Positions 4,551 to 23,506 of a DNA stretch of 64,000 bases are shown piece by piece. Origin of the DNA: a virus. Lineage: Duplodnaviria > Caudoviricetes. The DNA is taken from the IMG/VR virus record IMGVR_UViG_3300008255_000118, positions 24,333 through 88,332 of that record. One strand, written 5' to 3'. Both the position numbers and the translations under genes were made by a program. Every line of letters starts with the position of its first letter. The first letter of the stretch is position 1. The notes beneath the pieces were generated by a model, which saw nothing but the letters and a program-made list of their open reading frames with translations, had not been told where the DNA came from and made no database searches.

Positions 4551-4551
4551 T

Positions 4552-6830: not shown

Positions 6831-7385
6831 TTAGATTAAATTTTGTTTCACCTTGATTAATATATCATTGAACTTCTGATTGACTAAGTCTTTCTGCATA
6901 TCCTCAGGTGTCAAAGTATGTGAAAGATTATTCAATTTTGTCTCCTTAGCCTTTACTGACCAGTAGAATGAATCTAGATAGTCAGCCTCTTTTCTAAGCC
7001 TAAGTAGTTTTTTTCTCATTAAGCTACCTATGGGATCTCTAACAATAGCTTGTAAAATAGCATCTCCTGAAGGGTACTTCTTTTGTGTTTTCCCCGAAGA
7101 GTTTATTATGTCACAAACTAGGTCCTTAGAGTAGTATTCATACAGTTGAGCCTCTTTTATCTCAACCTCCAACTTATAACAACTAAATGTGTTATCTGCC
7201 TCTGCCTTCCACAACCCTACTCTATTCATCAATGCTGGTATGGTAATAATTTCAGCAAACAGATTGTGATAATCAATAGCCATAATTTCATCAACATTAA
7301 TCTCTGTTGTAAAGTCAGGGAAAACTAATACTATTTGTTTACCCTTAAAGTCAAAGCTTAGTTTTAATTGCTCCTCTTGTTCCAT
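6831..7385 (-). CDS. UvsY-like recombination mediator
   Basis: Helical protein with W.S..AK..KL.NL C-terminus; adjacent to SSB and RecA genes. Confidence 0.55.
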   Translation of the reverse strand: MEQEEQLKLSFDFKGKQIVLVFPDFTTEINVDEIMAIDYHNLFAEIITIPALMNRVGLWKAEADNTFSCYKLEVEIKEAQLYEYYSKDLVCDIINSSGKTQKKYPSGDAILQAIVRDPIGSLMRKKLLRLRKEADYLDSFYWSVKAKETKLNNLSHTLTPEDMQKDLVNQKFNDILIKVKQNLI

Positions 7386-7407
7386 TTATTACTTTGTAAT
7401 TAATCCC

Positions 7408-7432
7408 TAAAACTAAGTATAATTTTTATACT
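7408..7432. promoter_or_regulatory. Intergenic palindrome AGTATA-N5-TATACT within a 25-bp sequence repeated at 53321-53345
   Basis: TAAAACTAAGTATAATTTTTATACT is identical at both sites. Confidence 0.65.
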
Positions 7433-7455
7433 ATCCAACTTTTTTATTATTTATT

Positions 7456-10400
7456 TTATATTATCTCTGTAAAGCCTTCTACTAAAAACTCATTACTACC
7501 AAAAAATTCATTGAGATACAGCTTCCCTCTTAGTATCACCAGTGCACCATCTTTAAACTTTGTCATGTCCCCTTTACCCATTGCCTCTGACCACATTCTA
7601 AATGCAATAGTAGATGAGCCTTGTTGTAGAAATCCAATACAGTAACTCTTATTTGTCTTAGTCAATTTTATCTGTACATCTACTAGTATACCTGGCAATA
7701 CAAACTTCTTACCACTCTTAGTTACTTCCTTTGAAAAATCCTCCTCTAATAGAACTTCTCCCTTTATCTTAAAGTCCTCTACTAGTCGACTATAGTTAAG
7801 AAGGTTGATCTTACTAATGTCACTCTGCTTAAGAACCCAATAGTAGTCATTCTCTCTATTATTTACATACTCTGATGGTAGATACTGCCATTGTATTTCA
7901 TCTAACTTATGTTGTAGAGAGTATAAGTCATTCCTATACTTCTCTTTAATCTCTACCACTAGCTTCTTATCTTCTTTCTTAAGCCTAAAATCATCTCTAA
8001 TGGTAAACATATACTTCTCTATCAATCTGAATCTCTCTCTAGGCTTTTTGATACTTTCAATCTCATCAAAACAACCAGAAACAATACAGTTAATCATAGA
8101 GGTTTTCTTTACTCCACTACCAACTCTTTCACAAAATTCTTCAAAGCTAAAAAATCTGCCACTTCTCTCTCTCTCTAATAGTACTGCATCCACAGCGGCT
8201 GGTCCCATATAAGCTATCTGTGTTAAGTTCCAGTAAATTGTCTGTTTCTCCACTGATGAAAAGAATTGTTTTTCTGACAAGTTAATATCTGGTGCCTTTA
8301 CTTGTATTCTCCCTGAACTATTTATTTCAGAAACCATCATTGATATCTTATCTGTTTTAGCAAACTCTAATGCTACAGTCCAGAACTCTAAAGGGTAATA
8401 GAACTTTAACCAATTACACTGATACCCAATAATGGAATAAGCTGCAGCATGACTATTACAAGTTACTACTCCCTCCTGTGTAGTAAAAGTGTGACTGGGA
8501 CTATCCATTTCTACATCATACACATCCTCTCTCTCTATACTCTCAATACTCTTTATCTTAACAAGTCTAGTCCCAAGTCCCTTTTCACTAGATCTGTCTT
8601 TATCTGTGAATCTATATACAGTATCTTCCGATCTATAACCTGTATTTACAAATAAACAATCATCTAAAGTTAGATCTCTAAGTATCACTTCTCCTCTTTG
8701 TGTAGGATATTTATGATTATCTGTTGTACGAATAGTCTTCCCATCTTCAAGTGTAATTTTGAAAACTTCTCTAACTCCCTCATATCTAATATCTATGATC
8801 TTATTCTTTATAAGTACATTTTCCTTATTTAAAGAAAACCCTGTACCATAACCTCTATAGTTATAAGACTCATGTAGTGATAGTCTACTTATTAGCTTCG
8901 CATATTTCTTATCATTCTTAATCTTATACATTTCTGCAATTGTTGGGTTAAAGGCACTACTGCCTGAGTAGTTCAAACCAACTCTATATATGCCTTCAGT
9001 ACCTGAGATACATTTATTAAACCCATAAGAAGAAAACACCTCCATCTTATTCCATATCTCTACAGCTCTAGACTCTTCACAGTTATTCTTTTCTGCTCCG
9101 ATTAGAAATATCTGTCTATATTCCTCCATCTTAGACTTTATCATTTTACCCATTGCTTTTCTAACACCATCAGCTTCTACTAGGGTAAAGTTCCCTAATA
9201 CTTGAGCTATCTTCATTATCTGCTCCTGATAGATATAGAGGCCATAGGTATTTGCTGTTAACTCCTGTAGTGATGGGTGATCATATACTATCTCTTCAAT
9301 ACCTCTTCTTAAATCAATATATCTCATATGTGTACCTGAAGCCATAACACCTGGCCTATATAGTGAAATAGTAGCTACTAAGTCTTCTATGTGAAATGGT
9401 TGTACCAACTTTAGATAACCTGTTAACCCTTTTGTGCCAAAGTGGAACACATCTTGATTCAAACCTCTTCTAAATAAGTCAAATATACTATCATCATCTA
9501 AGGGGATATCATCAACACTGATTCTCTTACCTGTATTCTTTTCAACTAAATCAATTATGTGGCCAAACTTAGCCATTTGTATTGTTGAAAGAATATCTAC
9601 TTTCAAATAACCAATATCTGCCAATAAACCACCCTCCCACTCACTTACTAAAATATCTCCATCCATTCTTACAGGGATCTGTTTAAATAAATCTATCTGT
9701 CTCCCACTTTCATCTATTAATTTGGGAACGACAATCGTTGCACAGGCATGTATTGACATACTCTTGATAGAGTTAATAACATACTTACAGTCTCTCACAA
9801 TCTCCATATTATTCTCTACATAAAGTCGTAGTCTCTTATTAGTCATAGATTCATAGATAAGAGTTTTCCAAGTGGAGTTATCCCCCTCTAAGGTCTTTGT
9901 TACCTTATCAGCTGTTATCTCTGTTGTATTCCCATAATATCTCTCTAGTTCTTGTATTGCTCCCTTTAGCTGTAGGGTATTATATGTACCAACTCTACAA
10001 ACATACTGTTGCCCATACTTGTTCTTCATATAGTCAATCACCTCATCTCTTCTATCTGAAGCAAAGTCAATATCAATATCTGGGAACTCTGACTTTATCC
10101 TGGATTCATTTAAAAATCTTTCAAAGAGTAAGTCAAAATCAAGAGGGTCAATAGCAGTTATTCCTAATAGATAAGAAACTAGACTACCAGCTGCTGAACC
10201 ACGACCAGGTCCTACTTGTATATGTTGTTCTCTACACCAATTACAAATGTCCCACAATATTAGAAAGTAGTCAATAAACCCTTGTTTAATAATATTCAAT
10301 TCTCTAACTAATCTATCCCAGTGTTGTTTCTTATCTGTAGATATCTTTTTGTTAAACTTCTCTATAAGAAGTGCTATAAAGAGCTCATTATTAGTAGAGT

Positions 10401-11544
10401 ACTTTAGTCTCTCTTGTTCACTCATCTCATAGCTAGGCAAGAATTTCTTAGTATCATCTATTACATAGTCACATATCTCAGAAACATAACTTAAACTCTC
10501 TATACCCCTCTTTAGTAAACTTTCATATCTAGAACTCCCAAATAGATGAATTAGTTTCATCATTAGCTCTTGTGAAGAATGAAAGTAGTGTCCTCTAGTA
10601 CTGTTTTGAAAGTCCCCACCCCCTTGTTTTACCAAAATATCTTTTAAGTGGGTATGTTCAGAGTCTAAACAGTAAGTATCGTGTATTAGTATCGGTGGTA
10701 AACTTTGCTGCCAACCTTCATTATTTAGATATTCTTGTAGACTCTCTAGATATTCTTTGTCTTTTAAATTAGAACTATATTCTTTATCGCTTACTTGTAG
10801 AAAACAATTCTCAAAATGTGAAAGAAGAAAGTTTATAAATTCATCTGTTAGAGATAAGCCTGGCTCTGTAACACAAACTAGCCCCTTGAAATCTTGATTT
10901 ATTGACTCAATCTCTATATAAGAGTACTCTCCCGTATGTAGCAACTTGTTTAAGAGTAGTAGATTTGACCACCCTACTTGATTCTTAACATACAACTTTA
11001 AGTCTACTCTACTCCCATTCCCTGTCTCCACAGGTAAGGAGTACCCCGAAACAGGTCTAATTCCCTTTTTCTTACAAGCCTTTTGAAACTGTAGAATACC
11101 TCCAAGTGTACCCTTTTCACAAATCCCTAGAGTCTTGTACCCTAAAAACTTAGCTTTTTCTACCCAGTCAGGATACTCTCCAACGCCACACATTCTCTCA
11201 TACCTGCCATGTATGCCTAAATAAGAATCAAAATACACCTGTTGTGAACAAGTTCCAATATACTTTAACTCTTCTAGATCTACATGTGCTAAAGAGTCTG
11301 CTCTGGTATAAAGATACCAAGGGCCAAGTTTAAAGATAATCCCATATAAACTGTCTAAGGACTCTAAAACTATATCCAACAATTCACTGTTGAATACTAA
11401 TGACAACTCTCCATTATCATTTAATACGGGTTTTTCAACATCATGAAAGTAAAATAGTTTACCGTCTATGTCAATCAGTCTCCCTTCTTCTTTATATCTG
11501 AAAAGATTTGTATGAAGGTATCTTTTTAGGCTCTGGTCTATCAT
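7456..11544 (-). CDS. dnaE: DNA polymerase III alpha subunit (family C) with intein
   Basis: PHP domain, GPGRGSAAGSLVSYLLGIT, PDIDIDF, KVDIL, YGFNK/SHAAAYS, C-terminal OB fold. Confidence 0.97.
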   Translation of the reverse strand: MIDQSLKRYLHTNLFRYKEEGRLIDIDGKLFYFHDVEKPVLNDNGELSLVFNSELLDIVLESLDSLYGIIFKLGPWYLYTRADSLAHVDLEELKYIGTCSQQVYFDSYLGIHGRYERMCGVGEYPDWVEKAKFLGYKTLGICEKGTLGGILQFQKACKKKGIRPVSGYSLPVETGNGSRVDLKLYVKNQVGWSNLLLLNKLLHTGEYSYIEIESINQDFKGLVCVTEPGLSLTDEFINFLLSHFENCFLQVSDKEYSSNLKDKEYLESLQEYLNNEGWQQSLPPILIHDTYCLDSEHTHLKDILVKQGGGDFQNSTRGHYFHSSQELMMKLIHLFGSSRYESLLKRGIESLSYVSEICDYVIDDTKKFLPSYEMSEQERLKYSTNNELFIALLIEKFNKKISTDKKQHWDRLVRELNIIKQGFIDYFLILWDICNWCREQHIQVGPGRGSAAGSLVSYLLGITAIDPLDFDLLFERFLNESRIKSEFPDIDIDFASDRRDEVIDYMKNKYGQQYVCRVGTYNTLQLKGAIQELERYYGNTTEITADKVTKTLEGDNSTWKTLIYESMTNKRLRLYVENNMEIVRDCKYVINSIKSMSIHACATIVVPKLIDESGRQIDLFKQIPVRMDGDILVSEWEGGLLADIGYLKVDILSTIQMAKFGHIIDLVEKNTGKRISVDDIPLDDDSIFDLFRRGLNQDVFHFGTKGLTGYLKLVQPFHIEDLVATISLYRPGVMASGTHMRYIDLRRGIEEIVYDHPSLQELTANTYGLYIYQEQIMKIAQVLGNFTLVEADGVRKAMGKMIKSKMEEYRQIFLIGAEKNNCEESRAVEIWNKMEVFSSYGFNKCISGTEGIYRVGLNYSGSSAFNPTIAEMYKIKNDKKYAKLISRLSLHESYNYRGYGTGFSLNKENVLIKNKIIDIRYEGVREVFKITLEDGKTIRTTDNHKYPTQRGEVILRDLTLDDCLFVNTGYRSEDTVYRFTDKDRSSEKGLGTRLVKIKSIESIEREDVYDVEMDSPSHTFTTQEGVVTCNSHAAAYSIIGYQCNWLKFYYPLEFWTVALEFAKTDKISMMVSEINSSGRIQVKAPDINLSEKQFFSSVEKQTIYWNLTQIAYMGPAAVDAVLLERERSGRFFSFEEFCERVGSGVKKTSMINCIVSGCFDEIESIKKPRERFRLIEKYMFTIRDDFRLKKEDKKLVVEIKEKYRNDLYSLQHKLDEIQWQYLPSEYVNNRENDYYWVLKQSDISKINLLNYSRLVEDFKIKGEVLLEEDFSKEVTKSGKKFVLPGILVDVQIKLTKTNKSYCIGFLQQGSSTIAFRMWSEAMGKGDMTKFKDGALVILRGKLYLNEFFGSNEFLVEGFTEII
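8455..9012 (-). mobile_element. 186-aa mini-intein in DnaE (Cys1 ... VVTCN/S)
   Basis: Interrupts conserved YGFNK|SH; block B TTDNHKY, block F VYDVEM, terminal Asn, +1 Ser; no endonuclease motifs. Confidence 0.92.
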
Positions 11545-11746
11545 CTCTATTCTTTCTACTCTTTGGCAAGTCTATGTATACATAGACTTCATTTTCTACT
11601 ATAAATTCTCTAAGTTTACAGAAGATATTATCACTATACTCTTTACTCCAATTATCAAACCAAGAGGAATACACTTTATAGAATTCACTCTTTGTCATTA
11701 TACAACAGTCTAAAAATAACTGTTTATCACTTATGATTAAGCTCAT
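11492..11746 (-). CDS. Hypothetical protein
   Basis: 84-aa ORF overlapping both neighbours; true start uncertain. Confidence 0.45.
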   Translation of the reverse strand: MSLIISDKQLFLDCCIMTKSEFYKVYSSWFDNWSKEYSDNIFCKLREFIVENEVYVYIDLPKSRKNRDDRPEPKKIPSYKSFQI

Positions 11747-12056
11747 CTATACACAGATTAGTAAACTTTATTAACTGTCTGTTTAGAAGAAGTGAGGTTT
11801 TATAGAAATAAGACTTGGTCTCTCTTCTCCTACCAAATCTGTAAATAATAGCATACTCATCTCTATCTACTTTAATATTTCTGACATTGATTGATCTCTT
11901 TTCTATTGAGAATCTTAGATTTTGAAAAAGGAAACAGTCATGACTAATTCTTACAGCCCTTTTAGGGCCTCTTTCTAGTCTAGTATCATCTACTAAGTCT
12001 TCTAAGCTGGTTCTAATTATCTCACAAAATTGTGAGACATCTACTTGTTTTTTCAT
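11727..12056 (-). CDS. Hypothetical protein
   Basis: 109-aa ORF between folE and dnaE. Confidence 0.55.
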   Translation of the reverse strand: MKKQVDVSQFCEIIRTSLEDLVDDTRLERGPKRAVRISHDCFLFQNLRFSIEKRSINVRNIKVDRDEYAIIYRFGRRRETKSYFYKTSLLLNRQLIKFTNLCIDELNHK

Positions 12057-12071: not shown

Positions 12072-12824
12072 CTATTTCTTTAAATTTAATAAAGTGTAAA
12101 ACTCTTCTCTGGTTTTCTGATCATCATAAAACTCCTTACTCAAAACTTGAGTAGCAGTATCACTACTTTCGTCCTTTACTCCCCTACAAGCTACACACAT
12201 ATGTTCTGCCTCTACCACAACAGCTACTCCCTTATTCCCTTTAGCTACTGAATCTAGATAATCATGTATCTCCTGTGTTATGTTCTCTTGTACTGTTGGC
12301 TTTCGAGAAATATAGTCTACCACTCTATTAAACTTAGATAACCCTATCACTGTTTCTCCAGGAAGATACCCTATATGAGCTCTTCCTGTAAATGGTAGAT
12401 TGTGATGGGCACACATTGAATTAACTTTAATCCCTCTAACAACTACCATCCCTCTATACTTCCCATCATTCTCAAAGTCAGTTACTTTTGGCGGATCTGA
12501 AAAGTCACTTCTTGCTAAGTCTTCTACCCATGCCCTAGCAACTCTTCTTGGGGTATCTGCCATATGTGGGCTCTTAGTCCAGTCATACCCTAGTACTCTT
12601 AAAAACTCGCCATAACATCTAGAGGCTAGATCAATAATTAACTCATTTGGCATTTCTGCAAAGCCTCTTATTGGGTTACCATACCTATCTAGTTCAATAT
12701 CTACTATCTTAACATCATCAGGCAATGGCAGATCAGTCTCTGATAAGATCCACCCACTAGTTTCTGACTCCCATTGATTTGTTGTGGTCATTGACCATAT
12801 CTGATACACTTTTAGTTTTCTCAT
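12072..12824 (-). CDS. folE: GTP cyclohydrolase I
   Basis: DTPRRVA, SMCAHHNLPF.G.AHIGY, GLSKFNRVV, QENIT, EAEHMCVACRGV. Confidence 0.95.
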   Translation of the reverse strand: MRKLKVYQIWSMTTTNQWESETSGWILSETDLPLPDDVKIVDIELDRYGNPIRGFAEMPNELIIDLASRCYGEFLRVLGYDWTKSPHMADTPRRVARAWVEDLARSDFSDPPKVTDFENDGKYRGMVVVRGIKVNSMCAHHNLPFTGRAHIGYLPGETVIGLSKFNRVVDYISRKPTVQENITQEIHDYLDSVAKGNKGVAVVVEAEHMCVACRGVKDESSDTATQVLSKEFYDDQKTREEFYTLLNLKK

Positions 12825-12825
12825 C

Positions 12826-13593
12826 TTAAACTCCCCTTTTATTATTATAGGCTATAATATGTAATCTTTCTGTATAGTTATAGCCTTTGGCTACACAGTA
12901 CTCCATTAATTTAACTCTCTTTGGTTCTAGTTCTTCTCTAGTCCCACCTGCTGGCATTAGATAGACACTCTCTTTTCCTACCTCTAGAAACTCTAAAAGC
13001 TCTAAAAGCTCTAAAAGCTCTCTAGTTTCATCTAAAGTAGAAATTACTGGCTTAATCTGAAAACTATCATGATAGTGTATCATCTCTTTCATCACGTGCC
13101 ATTTCTTTCTATACTTTTCATGCTTAGTAATGTCTTTCCTAGTTACATCTCTACCTAATGGAGTAACTGTCCCTACTCTTGGCTTTGAGTTTCTAAACTT
13201 AGGGGATAGACTAATCATATCAGCTACTGTAGGAACAAATGCTGAACCTTCAGTTTCTATTGTAATATAGTGTCCATAAGTCTTAGCTAAAAGACATAAC
13301 TCTTGTAAAAGTTCTGGGTGCATAGTTGGAGAGCCCCCAGTTATCATTGTATGTCTAATATGCTCATTCTTTCTAAACATGTTCTCTATAACCTCTAAAC
13401 TAATTGTTCCCTTCATTGGGTGCCAAGAGGTGTACCAAGAATCACAGAAATCAGTATCACTGAATTGACATCTTAATACACAACCCGTAGTTCTTATAAG
13501 AATATGTGGTACTCCCATTAATTTGCCCTCTCCTTGTAAACAAGTATATAGCTCCTGTATTGGCTGTATTTTACTATAGTCCATAAATTGCAC
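12826..13593 (-). CDS. queE: 7-carboxy-7-deazaguanine synthase (radical SAM)
   Basis: E.Y..LQGEG, IRTTGC..RC...CDS, ITGGSP, ITIETEG, SLSPK, RLH. Confidence 0.93.
   Translation of the reverse strand: MQFMDYSKIQPIQELYTCLQGEGKLMGVPHILIRTTGCVLRCQFSDTDFCDSWYTSWHPMKGTISLEVIENMFRKNEHIRHTMITGGSPTMHPELLQELCLLAKTYGHYITIETEGSAFVPTVADMISLSPKFRNSKPRVGTVTPLGRDVTRKDITKHEKYRKKWHVMKEMIHYHDSFQIKPVISTLDETRELLELLELLEFLEVGKESVYLMPAGGTREELEPKRVKLMEYCVAKGYNYTERLHIIAYNNKRGV
12982..13017. repeat. In-frame 9-bp tandem repeat (CTCTAAAAG x3 plus a variant) encoding ELLELLELLEFLE in QueE
   Basis: Seen directly in sequence. Confidence 0.85.
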
Positions 13594-14137
13594 TTGTTTT
13601 AGGGGTTTCTTTGAATTCTACAGAAGTAACAGTCACTCCAAGTGGGAACATTTTCTTTTTAACTTCCTCGTATAACCATGCTGAGATATTCTCAGAAGTT
13701 GGTACAAAGTTTACAACTACTAAGCCTTCATAGATCTCTTGTACTGCTAAGGGCTCACTTTCATATATTGAAGGGCTTAGATTAAGAAATGCCTTACTTC
13801 CCATATCATTCATAAACATATTACTTCTGTAATCATCTATCCTCTTTTCAGTAATTAAAGGGTATACATATGATATAACTGGGTCATTGATATCCATTAT
13901 CATCTTATGATCTAGAGTATCATCCACCCATTTCTTAAACCAACCTAGATGCTTGAAGTCAGTTACCATACCATCTGTTAAGTAGTCTGCCTCTAATTTA
14001 ATAATAACTTGGCCCTGATGCCCATGTAAGTGACGACAGACTAAACAGGTATCAACTGCATAGTCTGGGTTTAGTTTCTGGTTGTGTACTCTATGACCAT
14101 AACAGAAATCAAAACTCTTTGTAATATTATGCTTCAT
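13574..14137 (-). CDS. queD: 6-carboxy-5,6,7,8-tetrahydropterin synthase
   Basis: F.YGHR, C..LHGH, GMVTDF, LDH, PTSEN, ETPKT.A.Y. Confidence 0.93.
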   Translation of the reverse strand: MKHNITKSFDFCYGHRVHNQKLNPDYAVDTCLVCRHLHGHQGQVIIKLEADYLTDGMVTDFKHLGWFKKWVDDTLDHKMIMDINDPVISYVYPLITEKRIDDYRSNMFMNDMGSKAFLNLSPSIYESEPLAVQEIYEGLVVVNFVPTSENISAWLYEEVKKKMFPLGVTVTSVEFKETPKTSAIYGL

Positions 14138-14966
14138 TTCTAGAGTCGTTATTCATTAATATTTGATTTACACAAGCTGTAACATAGTCCCAATCCCTCT
14201 TTACTAAACCACTATCAGTCTTCTCTGCATATGGTGTTGGGTCTGCCCTATTTAGTTTCATGAAAGCCTCTACTCTCTCTACTGAAGATGCTGAAAAGAA
14301 ATCTGAATACCACTTACCCGTAGCTGGGTCTTGTAATGGCTTATACGAAGTCATTGTTCTCTTATAAACCTCATCAAAATCTAAGCCTAGAGTTTTACAA
14401 CTTATCTCTCCATCTAATAGTATATCACCTTTATCTAACTCTAGATATGGAGTATAGTAAGATACATTTTCTGCATCCCAGTTGCCTAAGAGAAAAGCAT
14501 GGTAATCAGCATCTCTGAATTCTTTACGACAATCAGGGTACACAGTAGCATCTCCACTATGTATTCCCATTGCAATTGCTACTGGTGAACCAGTTTCTTG
14601 ACTCCAAGATAAAGCTACTGCTTGTATAATAGAAGAAAATATTTTGTTCCTATTTGGCACCACAGTCATTTTCATATTCTCCTGTTCATAGTGTCCTTCA
14701 GGCACTTCACTACCACCAGATACTAGAGATGAAGAAGTCAACAGATGCCCAATATCTAGACTTACAATATCATGTGAGATGATACCTTTAGTATTCAAGT
14801 TCAAAAACTCCACAAGGGATTTAGCTTTTTCAAGTTCTACAGAATGTTTTTGACCATAGTTAAATGATAACAGTTTTACATCATACTCTCTTGCTAGTAA
14901 ATGTACTAACAATGAACTACTGTCCATACCCCCTGATAATGACAGAACAACTCTCTTTTTACTCAT
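14127..14966 (-). CDS. queC: 7-cyano-7-deazaguanine (preQ0) synthase
   Basis: SLSGGMDSS, FNYGQKH, VVPNRN.IF, GIHSGD..VYPDCR.EF; C-terminal Zn cysteines replaced (TSY...SASSVER). Confidence 0.93.
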   Translation of the reverse strand: MSKKRVVLSLSGGMDSSSLLVHLLAREYDVKLLSFNYGQKHSVELEKAKSLVEFLNLNTKGIISHDIVSLDIGHLLTSSSLVSGGSEVPEGHYEQENMKMTVVPNRNKIFSSIIQAVALSWSQETGSPVAIAMGIHSGDATVYPDCRKEFRDADYHAFLLGNWDAENVSYYTPYLELDKGDILLDGEISCKTLGLDFDEVYKRTMTSYKPLQDPATGKWYSDFFSASSVERVEAFMKLNRADPTPYAEKTDSGLVKRDWDYVTACVNQILMNNDSRNEA

Positions 14967-15073
14967 CTTTATTTATTTTTACTTTTATTAATTTAAACTC
15001 TCTAAACTCTATACTTCCACACCTAATTTAATAGTTGTTGGTCTGAGACTACACTTCAAATGTAATCTACACA

Positions 15074-15994
15074 CTACTGCCCTAGTGTCTTTGTAGTCAA
15101 AATATTGACATCTATTAATTCTTTTGGTATTAAATCAAGTCTTGTAGAACGTACAGGGGTAATATCAAGAGACCCTCTTCTAGAATATAGTAGTGCTATC
15201 ATACACTCATCTACTAGTTCTTGTTTGGTCATATCTATAAATAGTTTCTCACAACAAAACTCATGAAACTCATCTAACATTCTTATTGAAACTACTTTCT
15301 TGAATAACTCAGTATAGTTTAGAAACATCATCCCTTTAAATAGGCCGAAGAAAGTACCAGTGTCTTTTTGTTTGGTATATCTACATCTAGATCTTAATAT
15401 GTTTGTCTGTACTGTGGAGGTTGTATACAGTGGTGCTGGGAGAGCAATACTATAGTCTCTCTTAGCTGTATAGTCATCAAAGTCAGACAGTTTTGATATA
15501 TTGATTGAATCCTCTAGATAGTTGTACTGTAACAGTGTGTTTGCTGATAGTCTATCATGATATTGATGAAAAGCTACATTAACATCTACCCCTAGTAACT
15601 TTGATAAATCTTGTTTAATCTGATTTTCATAGTTCATTTTAGCAAATAATAATGACTTGCCCATCTTACACATATCAAATGTATTTAGATACAGTTTCAT
15701 CGACTTTGATTCTACTATCCCTACACTATATGATGGGTAAACAAACTTTAGTGTACCAGCTATAGGAAAACCATTGTCTAGTAAGAATGTTGCTTCATGA
15801 CAGTTCCATATGTCATATCCTTGGAACTCATTCCCCGTAATACCCCAGTCACCTCGTGCCTCTGCTCTAGGCATCATTACCAATAAAGAAGAATCAAAGT
15901 GATCTGTTTGTGTTTCATAGCTTCCAGAAGACCCTAGGTGTTTTGAAGCTATCTTATTAGTTTCCGATTCGGAAATACTTCTCTCTTTTTTCAT
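15074..15994 (-). CDS. queF: Bimodular NADPH-dependent preQ0 reductase
   Basis: QueF motif ESKSMKLYL; catalytic Cys/Asp in RSRCRYTKQKD; FHE; YSRRGSLDI.P.RS. Confidence 0.88.
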   Translation of the reverse strand: MKKERSISESETNKIASKHLGSSGSYETQTDHFDSSLLVMMPRAEARGDWGITGNEFQGYDIWNCHEATFLLDNGFPIAGTLKFVYPSYSVGIVESKSMKLYLNTFDMCKMGKSLLFAKMNYENQIKQDLSKLLGVDVNVAFHQYHDRLSANTLLQYNYLEDSINISKLSDFDDYTAKRDYSIALPAPLYTTSTVQTNILRSRCRYTKQKDTGTFFGLFKGMMFLNYTELFKKVVSIRMLDEFHEFCCEKLFIDMTKQELVDECMIALLYSRRGSLDITPVRSTRLDLIPKELIDVNILTTKTLGQ

Positions 15995-16016
15995 ACTTTT
16001 AAAAATATTCTATAAA

Positions 16017-16033
16017 ATTATAAAATTTATACT
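16017..16033. promoter_or_regulatory. Variant of AGTATA-N5-TATACT motif upstream of queF
   Basis: ATTATA-AAATT-TATACT; minus-strand TAAGTTTG lies just upstream. Confidence 0.5.
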
Positions 16034-16061
16034 TATCATCAAACTTATAATTAAGTTTTTT

Positions 16062-16340
16062 TTATAATAAATCTCTATTTTTTAATTTCTGGAGATTGTC
16101 CTCTATAACCTCTTCTAGAGTAATCCCATAGTTTTCACCAATTGCTGAAATACACCAAAGTAGATCACCGAGTTCACTCTTAAGATCTCTCTGTACTGTT
16201 CTGCCATCTACTTTCCTTATAATCTCTTTTGCAACCTCTCCAGTTTCCTCTGTTAGTTTTGCTAAAAGATATAGTTCAGGGTTAGATGAGTATTTCTTTA
16301 CCTTAGTTACTGTCTTTTGATATTCATTTATGTTTGTCAT
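16062..16340 (-). CDS. mazG: MazG-like nucleotide pyrophosphohydrolase
   Basis: KL.EE.GEVAKEI ... ELGDLLW.I..I...YGI.LEEV...NL.KL..R. Confidence 0.88.
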   Translation of the reverse strand: MTNINEYQKTVTKVKKYSSNPELYLLAKLTEETGEVAKEIIRKVDGRTVQRDLKSELGDLLWCISAIGENYGITLEEVIEDNLQKLKNRDLL

Positions 16341-16342
16341 AT

Positions 16343-16975
16343 CTATAGAATTATTCTACCACTGCTTATCTCCTTCTTGTCACTCAGTCTTATTATCTTA
16401 CTTTTTATTTTAGGTGCTAAGTCCTCTCTAACATCACCGAATACAGTATTCATAATAAATTCAATATTCTCCTCTAAGTCGGCAGAGGGCAAAGTAAAAC
16501 ATCTCTTCCCTAAGTTAGGGACTAAGTTTTGTGATAATATAAGATCAATAGCTAATCTAAAAGTCTCATCTGTATCTCTTGTGCCATCTTTTTCTATAGG
16601 GGCTTTGATTGGGGCGTAGAAGATAAAGTCATACTCATGTAAGAAGCCTGCTGTCATTTGCCCAAACAATTCTAGAGTTTCACTTGACACTTGATCTTTA
16701 CTATGTAAAAACTGAGTATAGGCTAAACCATCCACTAGACATCTATCAGCTAATAAATTTGTTTTTAGTAAGTCTTTCATGTGAAAGGTTAGAACAAGCT
16801 CCTGTGTTATATTAAAGTCTTCACTCTTACCACAATTAATAGGTAGTCCCTTATCCTTAAGAGCTCTTGTGTTTGAATAAGAAACATGATAGTTCTCAAA
16901 CTGTGGCTTCATGGCCAAACGATTGATTAATGTTGTCTTTCCAGTACTATGTGTACCTGTTAATACTACTTTCAT
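16343..16975 (-). CDS. P-loop NMP-kinase-like protein (AAA_28/NadR-kinase-like)
   Basis: LTGTHSTGKTT, LLADRC..D..AY, YD..FY.P, DG.R motifs. Confidence 0.75.
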   Translation of the reverse strand: MKVVLTGTHSTGKTTLINRLAMKPQFENYHVSYSNTRALKDKGLPINCGKSEDFNITQELVLTFHMKDLLKTNLLADRCLVDGLAYTQFLHSKDQVSSETLELFGQMTAGFLHEYDFIFYAPIKAPIEKDGTRDTDETFRLAIDLILSQNLVPNLGKRCFTLPSADLEENIEFIMNTVFGDVREDLAPKIKSKIIRLSDKKEISSGRIIL

Positions 16976-16979
16976 ATGT

Positions 16980-17774
16980 TTACAGTTTTACTAGTTTTCT
17001 AAAATATTTTGTATTCTTTAACACCAAGTGATACTGCTCAACTGTCATATCACACTTGATTAATTCAAATAGTTTTGTTTTTGGCTTTTCAAGTAGTGGG
17101 ATATAGTGCTCATAGTCTTTATTATCTAAGGACATCATAATTGGATTTGAGGTATCTAGAGATGTCAAGAAACTATATCTATCATCTCTATAGAAACTAA
17201 ATTCTAGCGGGAGTGCACAGCCCAATAAGTGGTGTTCTACTTCATAGTCTATTATCTCTTCTTCTATCAGATAATTAATTAGGGCTACCCTGCCGAAAGC
17301 CCAAGATACTAATTTATTTGAATGGGGGAAGATTCTCTCATATAGAGAATAGTCAAACGGTATGGCAACTCTCTCTATCCCTAATCTAATTAACTTCTCA
17401 TAGCATTCAATTATCTCTAACACGGTTCTACCCTGTACTACCCCAATCTTTTCACTCTTAATATCTCTATAGGTTCTTATCCACTTAGAGGCACTCCTTA
17501 TAGTCCCTTTCATATCCTCTAGAACGTCAGGGATAATATATGACGTTGGCTTCAGTTGTTCTATCCAGTAAGCAAATCTTTCAGGACTAAAAGAAACTCC
17601 CAGTTCAAATATTGAATTATCAAGTAGAACTTCTCTTCCCATCTCTACAGACTTTTGAAAAAACTCATAATATTTGGGATACTCTTCAAATAAATGTACT
17701 AGTGCATAGTCGTAATCATTGAATTTTCTGGATTCATCCAATAGACATATTGGTGATTCATGTGATATTCTCAT
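16980..17774 (-). CDS. dpdA: TGT-fold deazaguanine transglycosylase-like protein (DpdA family, subclass uncertain)
   Basis: LLDNS, IIPDV, GVVQG, HLLG and SLDTSNP match TGT active-site segments; no Zn-binding domain; clustered with que genes. Confidence 0.8.
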   Translation of the reverse strand: MRISHESPICLLDESRKFNDYDYALVHLFEEYPKYYEFFQKSVEMGREVLLDNSIFELGVSFSPERFAYWIEQLKPTSYIIPDVLEDMKGTIRSASKWIRTYRDIKSEKIGVVQGRTVLEIIECYEKLIRLGIERVAIPFDYSLYERIFPHSNKLVSWAFGRVALINYLIEEEIIDYEVEHHLLGCALPLEFSFYRDDRYSFLTSLDTSNPIMMSLDNKDYEHYIPLLEKPKTKLFELIKCDMTVEQYHLVLKNTKYFRKLVKL

Positions 17775-17820: not shown

Positions 17821-18309
17821 CTACAAAATTCTCATTACTCTTTTTAATGGTACAAGTAAAAACTTTTTCTTATCTCTTACTCTAACTGATAGAAGTGGGA
17901 GTTCATTCATCACCATAGAATTGTCAGCTATGTACCCAATAGAGTTAGAGCTATCTTCATTCTGTATTCTCACTTCAGAATCTCTATTGTAAAAGAATAC
18001 TCTATCCCACTTCTCCAACTTGTCTTTCTGTGCTGAATCTCTATAACAAAATACTGGTTCTCCCCATTCAGGTATTATCCCTGAAAAGACTCTAAGGTAT
18101 TCATCTTTACTACTAAAAATAGTTTCCAGTCTATTCTTACTACCAATATCTTCGATCTTCTTCTTTTTGCCTAACATTGCATTCTCCCAATAAGGAACAT
18201 ACTTTTTTTGAAAAATCTTTGTTCTGATTTCTGCACAGATATACTCCTTCTGTAGATTTTCAAAGAACTCAAAGATAGATAAGTTCCTAGATGATTGGCT
18301 ATTCTTCAT
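17821..18309 (-). CDS. Hypothetical protein
   Basis: 162-aa ORF abutting primase stop. Confidence 0.65.
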   Translation of the reverse strand: MKNSQSSRNLSIFEFFENLQKEYICAEIRTKIFQKKYVPYWENAMLGKKKKIEDIGSKNRLETIFSSKDEYLRVFSGIIPEWGEPVFCYRDSAQKDKLEKWDRVFFYNRDSEVRIQNEDSSNSIGYIADNSMVMNELPLLSVRVRDKKKFLLVPLKRVMRIL

Positions 18310-19356
18310 TTATGTTATTTTTACACTTTTAATACTGTTTACTCTAAAACTCAATACTGTTTCAAGATTCTCTAAAGTTAAGAAAATTTCTTGTCTATTC
18401 ATGTCTCCTGGATCTTTTTCTCCTACTAACTTAGCAACAAATACTTTCTCAAACTCTAACATTAGATTGTAGCTATACTGTTTAATACTATCAATAGCAT
18501 CAGGGTCATACATCAATATAACTGTCTTAACCCCTCTATCTCTTATCTTTCTTATCTGAATAGAGGAGATTTTTTTTCCAAATGTACAGAGACACTTAAC
18601 TTCATCAGTCTTATACAGTAGCATTTCTTTATCCATATTAGTTTTATCTAGTATTCCCTCTACTAAAATTACTGTCTGTGTCTTGTCTGTTACTTCGTCA
18701 ATCCCATATAAAGCTTCTGAAAACTCTACTCCCCCTTCATTCTTATACTTAGGGAGAGGCCTTAGCCCCTGTATCTCTCTCTCTTGATTTATCACTCTAT
18801 ACTTCTCTCTACTGAAATCAATTCTAGCAACATAACCTTTGTTCTCACCATCTTCAATAACTAAAAAGATAACATAGTTTCTTAGTTTAGTCTCTATTTT
18901 AGACCTCCCAACATTATATCTCTCAAAACTCTCCTTATCAAAACCTCTAGAGGATAGATATCCATCCTCATATACTCTTCTATATCCCATTGGTGGGTAT
19001 CTCTTCTTTAAAAGATGCTCAATCTTCTCTTCTTTTTCTTTGATCTTTAACTTACTTAAAGTGCCCAGGTCTTCACGATACTCATACTCTGTAATCAAAT
19101 CATCTCTGCCCATAGCCTTAAATAATGCTTTCTCAGATCCCTTAAACCCACATGAACCATGAAAGCAATGTATACTAACATGATTCTTATACTCTCCTTC
19201 TCTGTTCTCATTTAGCTTTACACCAAACTTATCACTCTTGCCACACTTAGGGCACTTAGATCCCATATACCATCCCTTAGCTGTTCTATTTCTGTGTGAT
19301 AGATTTAACAGGTTCAGTACCTTCTCTTGTGTAGTAGTAACATCACTCATACCCAA
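18310..19356 (-). CDS. dnaG: DNA primase (Zn finger + TOPRIM)
   Basis: CPKCG...HCFHGSC, ILVEGILD, MYDPDA, KDPGDM. Confidence 0.9.
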   Translation of the reverse strand: MGMSDVTTTQEKVLNLLNLSHRNRTAKGWYMGSKCPKCGKSDKFGVKLNENREGEYKNHVSIHCFHGSCGFKGSEKALFKAMGRDDLITEYEYREDLGTLSKLKIKEKEEKIEHLLKKRYPPMGYRRVYEDGYLSSRGFDKESFERYNVGRSKIETKLRNYVIFLVIEDGENKGYVARIDFSREKYRVINQEREIQGLRPLPKYKNEGGVEFSEALYGIDEVTDKTQTVILVEGILDKTNMDKEMLLYKTDEVKCLCTFGKKISSIQIRKIRDRGVKTVILMYDPDAIDSIKQYSYNLMLEFEKVFVAKLVGEKDPGDMNRQEIFLTLENLETVLSFRVNSIKSVKIT

Positions 19357-20692
19357 AAGCCTTTACTGATCTAATATGGTCGTAAAATCTCTCTCTACTA
19401 TAGAGAGTAAATATTGGGATGACTCTCTTTAACAACTTATACTTTCTTGTTTTGTCACCATACAATCTAATAATACCCTCTTCATACTCATCCCGAGTTT
19501 GATTTAAGGTAACAAAGTATGAAAATGGCTTTAATAGCCCCTTAAACTCTGAAATATGATATCTAGTTAAAACAAACTCAGGATCATCAGAGTCCTTGTT
19601 ATCTACTGTAGTTGATTGAGTAGCTGTGAAACCTGCTAAATTAAATTCTACAGCTATATTCTTGAATTCATTTGATACAGCTGTTCTTCTAGCTCTCTCA
19701 CCTTCATTACTTGTATCATATCTCTTCCCATTCCCTGGGTCAGCTAATTCTATATAGTCTAAAATTAAGGCATCTATACTCCCTAACTCAACTACTAGTG
19801 ATCTAATCTCTAGCATTGTAGCCGAGTTAAACTGTGAGTAACCCTTTACAAAGATCTCTCCACCTAAATTGCTAATATAGCTACACCCTTTTTTAATTGA
19901 CTCTACTGTCTTATCTGAAAAAATCCCTGACTCTAAGTCTGAAATAGTAGAACCTGTTATCCCAGCATCATAGGCATCTAGTGCCTCTGTTTCTGATCCC
20001 TCTAGCTGTATATGTAACACTCTAAACCCTCTTCTGGATAGTGATATGCCAACCCACTTTAGTAACTTGCTCTTACCTATTCCTGAGCCAGCCATAAAAC
20101 AAGCAGTATCCCCTCTGTCTACTCCACCACCTATTTGAACATCTAAGGGAGTTATACCTGTTGGTAACTTTCTCTGAACTTTTACATTCTCTTTCTCCTT
20201 AGCTTCTTCTCTTCTTTTAAGAAGTCTGTCTACAAGAGAGGCAAAAACTTCAGTATGACCTACGGCTTTCTTAATAGAAAAGTTATCAAGTTCCTCATAA
20301 GCGGATTTTAATAATTCTATCGCTTGATTTTTCTCACCTTTCTGATATAACTCGCCAATCTTATCATAACTATCTATGAATAGATTTAATCTAATAAACT
20401 CTCTTAGCTGCTCTACAGCTTCATCTTGATTGATTAAATCAGCTGACTTTATTTTAGAGAGTACTGTTTGTACTTTCTCTTGCATTTGAAACTTCTGTGA
20501 GAGAATCCCTACTGAAATACAACTATTATTTAGTTCATAGTAGTTCAAAATAGCTTGCCAAACTAGCTTATACTCTTCACCTGGTAAATACTGATACTTA
20601 AGATAATCTCTAGCTAAAACTAGAACTTCTGGCTTTTTTAAACAAATTTTGAACAGCTCATGTAGAAAATCTTTACTTAACTCTTTACTCAT
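19343..20692 (-). CDS. dnaB: Replicative SF4 helicase (DnaB/gp41-like)
   Basis: AGSGIGKS, HIQLEG, LILDYIEL, FTATQS. Confidence 0.88.
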   Translation of the reverse strand: MSKELSKDFLHELFKICLKKPEVLVLARDYLKYQYLPGEEYKLVWQAILNYYELNNSCISVGILSQKFQMQEKVQTVLSKIKSADLINQDEAVEQLREFIRLNLFIDSYDKIGELYQKGEKNQAIELLKSAYEELDNFSIKKAVGHTEVFASLVDRLLKRREEAKEKENVKVQRKLPTGITPLDVQIGGGVDRGDTACFMAGSGIGKSKLLKWVGISLSRRGFRVLHIQLEGSETEALDAYDAGITGSTISDLESGIFSDKTVESIKKGCSYISNLGGEIFVKGYSQFNSATMLEIRSLVVELGSIDALILDYIELADPGNGKRYDTSNEGERARRTAVSNEFKNIAVEFNLAGFTATQSTTVDNKDSDDPEFVLTRYHISEFKGLLKPFSYFVTLNQTRDEYEEGIIRLYGDKTRKYKLLKRVIPIFTLYSRERFYDHIRSVKAFGYE

Positions 20693-20713: not shown

Positions 20714-23506
20714 CTATAAATAACTAAAACTAAACTCCATCTTATCACCTAGTAATGCTCTACATAAGTTCCATAGTGACATTGAAGTATCATCATGTTG
20801 TGTTAAGCTCTCTAGTTTACCTGTCTGTTGTATAAAAGAGATACTATTTAATTCTGAGAAATATAAGTCTGTCATAGCTTTAGCTTTCTTTGACTTATAA
20901 GGAAATCTCATTTTATTAGTTTCAAAAAATACTGCCATTCTTGGAACTCCTAAATATAATGATTTTTTGTTAGCTCCTGTAGTTTTACCTACCACAGGTA
21001 AGTTTTCATCTTTCATCATTTGTACAAATATCTCCTGAAAGTTGTTGTTCTCAACAAACATAATATCAGGAGAAAAGTCTCTATCAATCTTCTTAAGAAC
21101 AGCCATTTGTTCAGAGTAGTTAGCACCCTGTCTCCTCCAACAATTAAAAATGTGAATTTTATTAAACTTATCTAGTCCGCCTACAGTAAAGACACTATAA
21201 TCTGATCCCACATTACCCGAGATAGCAAAATCACAACCTACTGCTATCTTCAAGTAGTCATCCCTATTAATATTATCAATGTTAGAGATAATCTCTCTAT
21301 CTTCTCCACCCTTAATAGCTTTGTTTAGAATAGAGTAGGGAAAGATAGTCGAATCATCAGAAATAGGTTTTACTAGTATCTCTCTGGAGAATATCAAAGA
21401 CCCTAAGACTTCTTTCTTCTCCATAAGAGACTTATAGCTATGTCTTTCCGGGAAAAGTAACTTACCATCGGGGAAGATAGCTGGGTACTCAAACATCTTA
21501 AATATGTTTGTTTGTCTTAGACGATAGTAGAGATCTTTCTCAAAGAAAGGGGTACCAACAGCTATTAGTTGCCCTGATGGAGACAAGGCTGGTAAAACTA
21601 CTCCTGAAAAAATATTCCAATACTTATCTCTTTGATCTTGTGAGTAGATAGATGAATCATTCAAAAAGTCATCTAGTACTATCCAAGTAGGGTGGTACCC
21701 CCTTATTTTAGAATTAGCAGATTTAATTACCAAACTTGAACCATTCTTACACTCTATATGGTCAGAGCCCCAAGTACTCTCTCTACCTATTGGCTTAAGC
21801 CTCTCTTTTAGTATATCATTAGAGTCTATCTCAGTTTGTATGATATCCATTAAGTGTCTAGCTAACCCATACTCATTTGTAATAAGCATCCCTTCTCTAG
21901 CCATAGAGAGATCTCTACTCTTATTACTCTCATAATTTAGCATAAGTTTCTGATTCTCTTTAATAGGCTGATATCTATACATCTGCCATAAAGGGTAGGC
22001 ATAGCTAAAATGATAAGAATTATGAGTAACAGTACCATCGCCTAAGACAAATCTGTTGTCCCCATCTACAGCAATAGATATATATTCTCCTTCTTCTAGC
22101 TCTTCTATATCTAAAGTTGATACATTTGAGATATCATAATTCACACTATCACCAGTATAGACCTTTGGCCTTCTAAACATTGAGTTTGATAACTCTGTAT
22201 CTTTTATCCTCTTTCTATCTAATAATACTGGTAAATCTAGTAGTTTTTCACCACATATCTTAAGCCTGATTGACTCAAACTTCCTCCCACTTTTCGTAAA
22301 ACTACTCCATTCACTCTTTCTAACACAGTGTAAACCTAATGTATAGCATAGATTCTCTATATCATCTATTAGTCTACTATGTTTTACACTCTGTGTGATG
22401 ATTAGTTGATTATCTTCAACACTACCATCAGAATCAGCTAACCCTGCTAGAACTCCCATTCTGACTTCAACTGAATTAAGTATAAAGTCTTCAGGGATAT
22501 ATTTTTCACTGGTTAGATCATATTTCTTAAACAGTGAATTAATTGGATTCTTTCTACCTCTAGTACCACTTAAGTATCTAGCACACTGATCTTCCCTAGT
22601 CTTTAGATCTAAGCCTAATTCTCCCCCATATGTAGTTAAGTAGCCAACAATCTTCTTATCTACTGTGCTAATCTCTTGAGGGATACTCTGTGTACCATCT
22701 CCTAACCATAACCCTAAATAATAGGGATCTAGATATATTTTCTTATATGGCAGTGAGAGGCAAACTTTGTACCCTTTATGTAGATTCTTAAAGTCTCTGG
22801 GTGAATTGATAAAATCTTTGATTTCTACATCTATAAGCTCTGGCACTCTGCTAGAGGGATTTACTCTCCCATCTGGAGTTCTCCACTTTCTATATAGTGA
22901 TAGTATATGCCTACTATTAACTGTATAAGAGTTTCCTCTAGATTGGTTCACTCTATACATTTTGTCTCTCCCTCTATAAGCTCCTATAACTTTTCTAGAT
23001 ACTGAATCAGGGCCCATAAGTAGATCTCCAATCCTAATTTCACCAGCTAGTTTTATAGTGCCATCTCCCATTCTCACTGAAGTTTCTCCTGAAATCGACT
23101 TACCATGGTCCCTTGCCGCCAAGACCCCTAAAAGCCTATATATTTGTAATAGATTACTCCACTCCAGATTATGCCAACCTAGAATAAAGTCAGGCAATAG
23201 AGATGATATAAAGTAGTTCAACAACTTACATCTAAGTGTCTCCTCTACACTTTCTGTTAAGCCAGATACATAAGTAAATGAAGTTGAATCAAGAATTTTA
23301 TTCTGAGTAGTTACTATATCAAAAGTTTCTTTGAATATCTGTTGAATAACTTTATCTATATCTGATTCTTGACCGCCTGATAGCCCTAGAATAGCTTTTT
23401 CATCTAAGAGATCTACAATATCTTCTACAAGACTCATAGTTTCTCTTAATTGCTTAATGGGGACAGCTTTATCTTTTGAATTAGCAAATAGGGAGTCTAT
23501 TATCAT
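20714..23506 (-). CDS. terL: Terminase large subunit with LAGLIDADG intein
   Basis: AARDHGK|S Walker A, IRGYHP..IVLDD, VGTP, VGCDFA, VENNNFQE, HDDT.MSLW. Confidence 0.92.
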   Translation of the reverse strand: MIIDSLFANSKDKAVPIKQLRETMSLVEDIVDLLDEKAILGLSGGQESDIDKVIQQIFKETFDIVTTQNKILDSTSFTYVSGLTESVEETLRCKLLNYFISSLLPDFILGWHNLEWSNLLQIYRLLGVLAARDHGKSISGETSVRMGDGTIKLAGEIRIGDLLMGPDSVSRKVIGAYRGRDKMYRVNQSRGNSYTVNSRHILSLYRKWRTPDGRVNPSSRVPELIDVEIKDFINSPRDFKNLHKGYKVCLSLPYKKIYLDPYYLGLWLGDGTQSIPQEISTVDKKIVGYLTTYGGELGLDLKTREDQCARYLSGTRGRKNPINSLFKKYDLTSEKYIPEDFILNSVEVRMGVLAGLADSDGSVEDNQLIITQSVKHSRLIDDIENLCYTLGLHCVRKSEWSSFTKSGRKFESIRLKICGEKLLDLPVLLDRKRIKDTELSNSMFRRPKVYTGDSVNYDISNVSTLDIEELEEGEYISIAVDGDNRFVLGDGTVTHNSYHFSYAYPLWQMYRYQPIKENQKLMLNYESNKSRDLSMAREGMLITNEYGLARHLMDIIQTEIDSNDILKERLKPIGRESTWGSDHIECKNGSSLVIKSANSKIRGYHPTWIVLDDFLNDSSIYSQDQRDKYWNIFSGVVLPALSPSGQLIAVGTPFFEKDLYYRLRQTNIFKMFEYPAIFPDGKLLFPERHSYKSLMEKKEVLGSLIFSREILVKPISDDSTIFPYSILNKAIKGGEDREIISNIDNINRDDYLKIAVGCDFAISGNVGSDYSVFTVGGLDKFNKIHIFNCWRRQGANYSEQMAVLKKIDRDFSPDIMFVENNNFQEIFVQMMKDENLPVVGKTTGANKKSLYLGVPRMAVFFETNKMRFPYKSKKAKAMTDLYFSELNSISFIQQTGKLESLTQHDDTSMSLWNLCRALLGDKMEFSFSYL
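22019..23098 (-). mobile_element. 360-aa intein with LAGLIDADG homing endonuclease in TerL (Ser1 ... VTHN/S)
   Basis: SISGETSVRMGDG start, VNSRHIL block B, LGLWLGDG and LAGLADSDG, GTVTHN end, +1 Ser of Walker A. Confidence 0.93.

Follow-up and report, generated by a model that had tools for sequence, protein, structure and literature searches.

Here we report that a P-loop kinase is evolutionarily coupled to the transglycosylase DpdA3, and that the two stand side by side in a 7-deazaguanine gene cluster of an uncultured virus (Duplodnaviria; Caudoviricetes). The source is an 88,332-nt IMG/VR contig (IMGVR_UViG_3300008255_000118) with an estimated completeness of 64%, of which the last 64 kb, positions 24,333 to 88,332, form the stretch analysed here (hereafter the window, in whose numbering coordinates are given unless stated otherwise). 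Homology shows the cluster (12072-17774, minus strand) to be a 7-deazaguanine DNA-modification module of the DpdA3 type in which the preQ1 pathway is intact. The module is of the published DpdA3 kind and carries a new variant set, namely QueF, MazG and a DnaE polymerase together with the lack of DpdN and DpdM. Since DpdA3 is almost always accompanied by a nucleotide kinase, the modified guanine of such phages may arise at the level of the free nucleotide, ahead of replication, and the linkage makes the question of DNA-level versus nucleotide-level modification testable with three purified proteins.

Linkage of the kinase to DpdA3 across phage lineages

Our comparison set consisted of 80 viral loci with DpdA3 homologs, which were obtained by an alignment-based search after a single-protein search gave none. 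Open reading frames (ORFs) were called in these loci and searched with profiles built from the window proteins, and a locus was taken as informative if it extended at least 1.8 kb downstream of DpdA3 (n=61). A kinase of the window family lies at most four genes downstream of DpdA3, on the same strand, in 60 of the 61 informative viral loci. Many of the 80 loci are closely related to one another; when they are grouped at 70% DpdA3 identity, 14 clusters result, of which 13 keep the adjacency of kinase and DpdA3. The order of genes is near-universal, with DpdA3 followed by DpdN (in most lineages), the kinase and QueF, and the linkage spans lineages with PolB, PolA or DnaE polymerases as well as T4-like ones with UvsW and UvsY, and is also seen in phages CP220 and immuto. 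Neither the kinase nor MazG was found in the genomes of four phages with DpdA1 or DpdA2 (9g, phiSM, Dp-1 and Quesadilla). Within the contig, the kinase and MazG are located inside the que operon, whereas the ribonucleotide reductase (RNR) and thymidylate synthase are encoded elsewhere.

Two phages with distant DpdA3-like proteins, Cellulophaga phage phiST and Chryseobacterium phage MA9V-3, lack the window kinase family across their entire genomes, and both encode a different small P-loop protein directly upstream of DpdA3. In MA9V-3 (L095, 13628-14098) this is a 156-amino acid kinase-like protein with matches to AAA_18 (E 1.5e-7) and AAA_33, and in phiST it is CGPG_00066 (L088, 9353-9832), a P-loop kinase match (AAA_18, E 9e-7) to which the 2023 DpdA3 paper assigned no function and for which it reported no homologs in other deazaguanine phages (PMC10516641). 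A further distant case is Bacillus phage BSTP12 (L087, MW354678, 5336-6684), where a 262-amino acid DpdA3-like protein (hidden Markov model (HMM) E 1e-21), annotated as 'NadR', is preceded by a 187-amino acid protein that weakly matches the kinase profile (E 6e-4). The DpdA3-like gene of BSTP12 adjoins genes for Gat-QueC, QueD, QueE, FolE and DNA polymerase I, and these sequence matches suggest that Bacillus phages carry a DpdA3-like system.

Taken as a whole, these data show that the kinase and DpdA3 have been coupled in evolution. An earlier note on this DNA, written from its letters alone, had tied the kinase to this class of DpdA and had named synteny across phages as a check. The tie is supported by the loci, by the four DpdA1/2 genomes and by the other P-loop kinases of phiST and MA9V-3; the synteny check, now run, supports the kinase as a companion of DpdA3 and does not support MazG as a constant one.

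The DpdA3 transglycosylase

The window DpdA (264 amino acids; 16980-17774, minus strand) aligns in tblastn over its full length with the annotated DpdA of immuto (47.7% identity) and with CP220 gp056 (about 39% identity), and a profile of its relatives reaches the proteins of immuto, CP220 and phiST with E values of 8e-132, 4e-91 and 3e-17, respectively. As CP220 gp056, immuto gp206 and phiST CGPG_00065 are the founding members of DpdA3 (Cui, Hutinet et al. 2023; PMC10516641), the placement of the window DpdA in this subfamily by homology and predicted fold is solid. No Pfam or NCBIfam model matches the protein, and none of the 3683 metagenome clusters of the family carries a Pfam domain. DpdA3 sequence profiles searched against the PDB did not reach TGT, and the link to TGT comes from the fold alone. 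The AlphaFold (AF2) model (pLDDT 92.8, pTM 0.90) matches Zymomonas mobilis TGT in Foldseek (E 3e-8, TM 0.64-0.68) and archaeosine TGT 1iq8 in VIA (Z 17.8, root-mean-square deviation 2.9 Å, 231 residues aligned). Three aspartates, D52, D83 and D207, are invariant across 26 sequences, and their spacings of 31 and 124 along the sequence are near the 35 and 126 that separate the essential Asp95, Asp130 and Asp256 of Salmonella DpdA (PMC10164549). The CxCxxC zinc motif is absent from DpdA3, which we thus regard as a minimal TGT-fold barrel. Isoelectric point and net charge were uninformative as a test for DNA binding, as DpdA3 proteins are acidic (median isoelectric point 5.6) and the DNA-acting DpdA of 9g is acidic too (5.6).

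A search for fused or interrupted forms of DpdA3 returned two DpdA3-QueF fusions, one copy with an intein and one joined to a GIY-YIG endonuclease, and no DpdA3-kinase fusion. The intein copy and the two QueF fusions are metagenome homologs (P0122, P0123 and P0124), and the intein, which contains a LAGLIDADG endonuclease, is inserted directly after the conserved LDNS motif at residue 55. A predicted complex of DpdA3 with the kinase scored 0.07 (mark 0.32), a value that weighs neither way on binding.

The P-loop kinase

The kinase (210 amino acids; 16343-16975, minus strand) matches PF13521 (AAA_28) with 61 bits and phrog_2107, named 'thymidylate kinase', with E 1.7e-31. A profile of 20 relatives searched against the PDB reached the ribosylnicotinamide kinase (RNK) of NadR (E 3e-6), deoxynucleoside kinase (E 3e-4) and thymidylate kinase (E 5e-3), and the AF2 model (pLDDT 85) matched in Foldseek (E 1e-6 to 1e-5) the deoxyadenosine kinase of M. 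mycoides, the thymidylate kinase of S. aureus, deoxycytidine kinase and NadR. Residues G7, G12, K13, T15, T36, R37, Q58, D77, R78, D130 and R133 are invariant in the family and S134 is kept in at least 90% of its members, such that the Walker A P-loop, the acceptor-side TR, the DR, the conserved Gln and the DDGxRS lid are all preserved; by sequence, this set of motifs is characteristic of small-molecule kinases. Sequence and model together place the protein within the P-loop fold group of deoxynucleoside kinases, thymidylate kinases and NadR RNK. The earlier note had called the gene NMP-kinase-like, of which the P-loop kinase (AAA_28) stands and the specific assignment to nucleoside monophosphate kinases does not, as the group spans all three of these types.

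The PHROG name was considered and rejected: the Pfam matches are to AAA_28 and, weakly, to AAA_18, and not to Thymidylate_kin, thymidylate kinase is only third in the PDB ranking, and no NCBIfam kinase model is matched at its cut-off. Longer forms of the kinase (about 380 amino acids) were uninformative, as their recorded Pfam matches are only to kinase or AAA families.

The preQ1 pathway and the predicted base

Downstream of the kinase and MazG, the cluster encodes bimodular QueF (306 amino acids, 15074-15994; PF14819 E 1e-20, TIGR03138 E 1e-45), the preQ0 synthase QueC (279 amino acids, 14127-14966; PF06508 E 7e-37, TIGR00364 E 9e-36), the 6-carboxytetrahydropterin synthase QueD (187 amino acids, 13574-14137; PF01242 E 1.8e-25), a QueE-like radical SAM enzyme (255 amino acids, 12826-13593; phrog_2076 E 2e-44) and the GTP cyclohydrolase I FolE (250 amino acids, 12072-12824; PF01227 E 1.4e-52), all on the minus strand. 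The nearest phage matches of QueE are in phiST and phi13:1 (46.9%) and in immuto (45%), all of which are DpdA3 phages. Homology shows that FolE, QueD, QueE and QueC would lead from GTP to preQ0, and QueF from preQ0 to preQ1. With TIGR03138, QueF scores 156.6 bits against a cut-off of 293, and we thus regard it as a diverged bimodular member; its ESKSMKLY motif (residues 95-102), Cys204, Asp211 and His244/Glu245 are kept in at least 92% of 68 relatives. The intact NADPH motif and catalytic Cys and Asp, from which a product of the preQ1 type and not G+ had been proposed in the earlier note, are thus confirmed, and the proposal itself holds as a prediction. QueC has no Gat (amidotransferase) domain.

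Neither a DpdN-type formyltransferase (PF00551) nor a DpdM-type YkgJ CxxCxxCC protein (PF03692; preQ1 methyltransferase family) was found on the 88-kb contig, and on this basis plain dPreQ1 is predicted as the modified base, with the caveat that the contig lacks about a third of the genome. In sister lineages, a YkgJ-type CxxCxxCC protein (PF03692) is encoded inside the DpdA3 cluster (L041:8784-9413 and L066:7334-8005), and methyl-dPreQ1 is predicted from sequence for these DpdA3-type phages.

MazG and other NTP-cleaving genes

MazG (92 amino acids; 16062-16340, minus strand; PF03819, 49.5 bits, cut-off 22) keeps the acidic E-x-x-E and E-x-x-D motifs in alignment, and its profile finds YpjD, MazG and DCTPP1 as relatives in the PDB. 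Its C-terminus is shorter than in relatives; truncation by a frameshift was considered and dismissed, as no continuation is present in other frames. MazZ is the (d)GTP-specific MazG of Z-genome phages, and no MazZ chain was among the PDB matches of the window-type MazG profile at E 0.01.

Genes for nucleoside triphosphate (NTP)-cleaving enzymes recur near DpdA3, and no single type is universal. MazG is encoded in the window, in L004/5, in L041/47 and in phiST, a 170-amino acid PRA-PH-like gene in 12 immuto-like loci, a Dcd/Dut-like gene in L013 and MA9V-3, a dUTPase in L004 and L041, and an HD domain fused to AAA_33 in CP220. MazG or PRA-PH types were found in 16 of 81 loci, a count that is low in part because the flanks are limited. 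Hence the idea that MazG is a constant partner of DpdA3 was not supported by the comparison. In the T4-like DpdA3 lineage, FolE and DpdA3 are separated by a conserved ORF of 144 or 145 amino acids, present at L010:6214-6648 and in about 18 other loci; the L010 copy, the single member searched, has no Pfam match, and thus nothing marks this ORF as an NTP hydrolase.

A possible pre-replicative route and its alternatives

In pre-replicative systems such as those for hydroxymethylcytosine in T4, for hydroxymethyluracil in SPO1 and for the Z base in Z-genome phages, synthesis of the modified base takes place on the nucleotide, the pool is cleared of the canonical dNTP, and the polymerase uses the modified dNTP. 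To our knowledge, complete base replacement is otherwise reached only through such pathways (T4, SPO1 and Z-genome phages). By analogy, MazG in the window would convert dGTP to dGMP, lowering the canonical pool and at the same time supplying substrate, upon which DpdA3 would exchange guanine for preQ1 on the free deoxyguanine nucleotide (or nucleoside). The adjacent kinase would then phosphorylate the product of DpdA3, host kinases would carry it to the triphosphate, and the phage DnaE would incorporate it, with wholesale replacement of G as the outcome. Gene content and synteny are the basis from which we infer this route, and we consider its chance to be a little short of even. With somewhat greater reserve, we speculate that DpdA3 might be the first TGT-family enzyme to act on a free nucleotide or nucleoside, that together with a kinase and an NTP-cleaving enzyme it might give rise to fully substituted genomes, and that the window might be part of an all-dPreQ1 genome copied by DnaE. 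Published data on DpdA3 phages also speak for the route: in CP220, phiST and immuto, the chemically analysed members, all G is replaced, the ADG nucleoside is present in the cytoplasm of CP220-infected cells, and attempts to modify DNA with DpdA3 in E. coli failed (PMC10516641). The interpretation offered in the earlier note thus keeps its gene identities, its preQ1-type product and the tie between kinase and DpdA, and loses MazG as a constant partner.

Several observations speak against a pre-replicative route. Every TGT and DpdA enzyme characterised so far has a polynucleotide as its substrate (PMC10164549), insertion after replication was proposed by those who defined DpdA3 (PMC10516641), and a 2025 paper describes deazaguanine as a modification at the level of the nucleic acid (PMC12783734). 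The kinase fold does not discriminate between nucleoside and nucleotide (monophosphate) acceptors, and MazG is inconstant at DpdA3 loci. The single exception to the linkage, the 16-kb contig L066, has a DpdM-like gene upstream of DpdA3, QueF directly downstream and no kinase. In addition, about 89 records of Streptomyces phages are matched by the window kinase in tblastn, and Streptomyces phage StarPlatinum, whose genome has no DpdA3, encodes members of both the kinase family (HMM E 1e-35) and the MazG family (E 2e-28); thus, neither family is exclusive to DpdA3. A quick kinase tree pairs the window kinase with that of StarPlatinum, a pairing that is unsafe because the branches are long.

The alternative closest to the literature is that DpdA3 exchanges the base for preQ1 after the DNA has been made, as has been proposed for all DpdA families (PMC10516641), and that the kinase and MazG act in nucleotide supply, be it as a guanylate-type kinase that returns the large amount of excised guanine via GMP to GTP for FolE, or as general dNTP-pool auxiliaries of large lytic phages. 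The presence of both families near DnaE in Streptomyces phages without DpdA3 agrees with this view, and the phosphoribosyltransferase in the immuto cluster would fit a guanine-recycling loop. The DpdA1/2 phages, with partial replacement and no kinase, would be accounted for as well if high flux is needed only for complete replacement. However, the kinase lies beside DpdA3 and not beside FolE or the phage RNR and ThyA, no phosphoribosyltransferase was found on the contig of the window (about 64% complete), and DpdA3 did not modify DNA in E. coli (PMC10516641). Furthermore, an unrelated small kinase takes the same slot in phiST and MA9V-3, which points to a function linked to DpdA3 itself. We consider exchange in finished DNA less likely than the pre-replicative route, and the strongest of its rivals.

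Alternatively, DpdA3 could act on DNA with the P-loop protein as an ATP-hydrolysing helper that renders the exchange efficient, analogous to DpdB, instead of a metabolic kinase. Bacterial DpdA needs the ParB-like ATPase DpdB (PMC10164549), and a ParB-like gene adjoins DpdA in two of the four DpdA1/2 controls (phiSM and Quesadilla), at a place equivalent to that of the P-loop protein in DpdA3 phages. Yet the protein has the size, the fold and the motifs of a small-molecule kinase, namely TR, DR, the conserved Gln and the DDGxRS lid, the last of which the kinase domain of NadR shares, it shows no extra DNA-binding domain, and it is present in Streptomyces phages without any DpdA, all of which make a helper role improbable. 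We also find it hard to believe that the kinase and MazG are ordinary early replication genes that stand beside dpdA3 merely by shared phage ancestry. All of these genes do lie in replication modules, between primase/helicase and polymerase, and many of the loci compared are mutually close relatives; nevertheless, the linkage extends across at least six gene orders and three families of polymerase, in phages whose hosts range from Campylobacter to Flavobacterium, it persists after clustering at 70% identity, and in distant clades the same slot is filled by non-homologous kinases.

Genomic setting of the cluster

The virus is known from metagenome contigs alone, several samples having given assemblies of it, and a near-identity DNA search against isolated phages gave no match. 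All annotated genes within the first 24 kb of the window are on the minus strand. In the direction of transcription, they start with the large terminase (930 amino acids, 20714-23506; homing-endonuclease/Hint matches), the DnaB-like helicase (449 amino acids, 19343-20692) and, in the same array and upstream of DpdA3, the primase (348 amino acids, 18310-19356); the region of the latter two (18310-20692) matches phrog_47 (E 2e-28) and phrog_19 (E 2e-45). Between primase and DpdA3 lies a conserved 162-amino acid ORF (17821-18309) without a family match, homologs of which follow the primase in the sister loci L004, L041 and L066. The eight cluster genes come next, intact and tightly packed, with DpdA3 first and FolE last, followed by two small ORFs of 109 and 84 amino acids (11492-12056) without a family match, the DnaE-type replicative polymerase (1362 amino acids, 7456-11544; phrog_405 E 4e-201, with PHP, DNA_pol3_alpha and weak Intein_splicing matches), and SbcCD and a UvsX-like recombinase (1673-5586). 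The gene list and coordinates given previously for the cluster, including the placement of DnaE two small genes downstream of it, were accurate throughout. Judging from the domain matches, both essential genes, the large terminase and DnaE, probably contain inteins.

From DpdA3 to DnaE, the spacing of adjacent genes ranges from overlaps to gaps of 107 nt, and no terminator-like sites were found on the coding strand from DpdA3 through DnaE. Promoter and terminator scans gave counts not above those of shuffled sequence, and a tRNA scan of the window found none. In L004 (10876-11223) and L041 (10203-10529), proteins with DUF1599 ('nucleotide modification associated domain 1') are encoded between QueC and DnaE; the 109-amino acid ORF, which takes the corresponding position in the window, was considered as a relative and rejected for lack of similarity to them. 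Outside the window, the contig encodes the RNR large subunit, a long thymidylate synthase, a helicase and RIIA/RIIB-like proteins (contig positions 10295-15190 and 18692-22275).

The replication module of the window resembles that of StarPlatinum-type Streptomyces phages. In StarPlatinum (L084, NC_048721, BE cluster; 2230-2580 and 7210-8621), the kinase gene directly follows that of a 263-amino acid methyltransferase, and the MazG gene directly follows DnaE. The 263-amino acid protein was considered as a hidden DpdA3 and found to be a true methyltransferase, and the kinase-methyltransferase pair might serve another nucleotide-level modification.

Significance and comparison with known systems

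Among the papers searched, none addressed the kinase link or a nucleotide-level route, and the word 'kinase' is absent from the paper that defined DpdA3 (PMC10516641), in which the lineage-spanning linkage is likewise unmentioned. If the pre-replicative route holds true, it would represent a fourth purine/pyrimidine-level route to non-canonical genomes and a new reaction type in the TGT superfamily, and could provide enzymes to make deazaguanine dNTPs. Given the 3683 metagenome clusters of DpdA3, the pathway would then be common in aquatic phages.

Among the known systems, that of immuto has the preQ1 pathway genes of the window, places a kinase from the window family between DpdA3 and QueF, and, as in the window, encodes an all-alpha NTP pyrophosphohydrolase near DpdA3. 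The two differ in that the window contig lacks DpdN, has DnaE as polymerase where immuto has PolA, and carries the 92-amino acid MazG between kinase and QueF, whereas the 170-amino acid PRA-PH-like gene of immuto is situated upstream; moreover, the phosphoribosyltransferase of immuto has no counterpart among the genes found on the contig. CP220 (Firehammervirus), whose dADG system is described as one of complete G replacement in Crippen et al. 2019 as cited in PMC10516641, has a kinase gene directly after DpdA3, and the encoded protein belongs to the window family (HMM E 9e-54). It differs in its end product, dADG, in having neither QueF nor QueC beside DpdA3, and in an upstream HD and AAA_33 protein instead of MazG.

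The dDG set of phiST comprises FolE, QueD, QueE, the MazG-like CGPG_00068, DpdL, CGPG_00066 and the DpdA3 CGPG_00065. Besides the close QueE, it shares with the window a homologous MazG (HMM E 2e-19) and a small P-loop kinase-like gene beside DpdA3; on the other hand, its DpdA3 is distant, its kinase is of the AAA_18 family, QueC and QueF are missing, and the end product is 7-deazaguanine. The post-replicative systems of the DpdA1 and DpdA2 phages (9g, phiSM, Dp-1 and Quesadilla) and the bacterial DpdA/DpdB systems have in common with the window a TGT-fold transglycosylase and preQ0 genes. Replacement in these phages is partial (PMC10516641), unlike in DpdA3 phages, and their DpdA is recognised as TGT by annotation, whereas DpdA3 has no Pfam match. 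Although DpdA3 has no homology to PurZ, would exchange a base rather than carry out synthesis on the ring, and is accompanied by a MazG whose profile did not reach MazZ among solved structures at E 0.01, so that the analogy would be a functional one only, the module would, if the pre-replicative route is true, resemble that of Z-genome phages (PurZ, MazZ, DatZ and a dedicated polymerase; PMC12783734) in combining an NTP hydrolase that supplies or clears the canonical nucleotide, a base change at the monophosphate level, a kinase step and incorporation by the phage polymerase.

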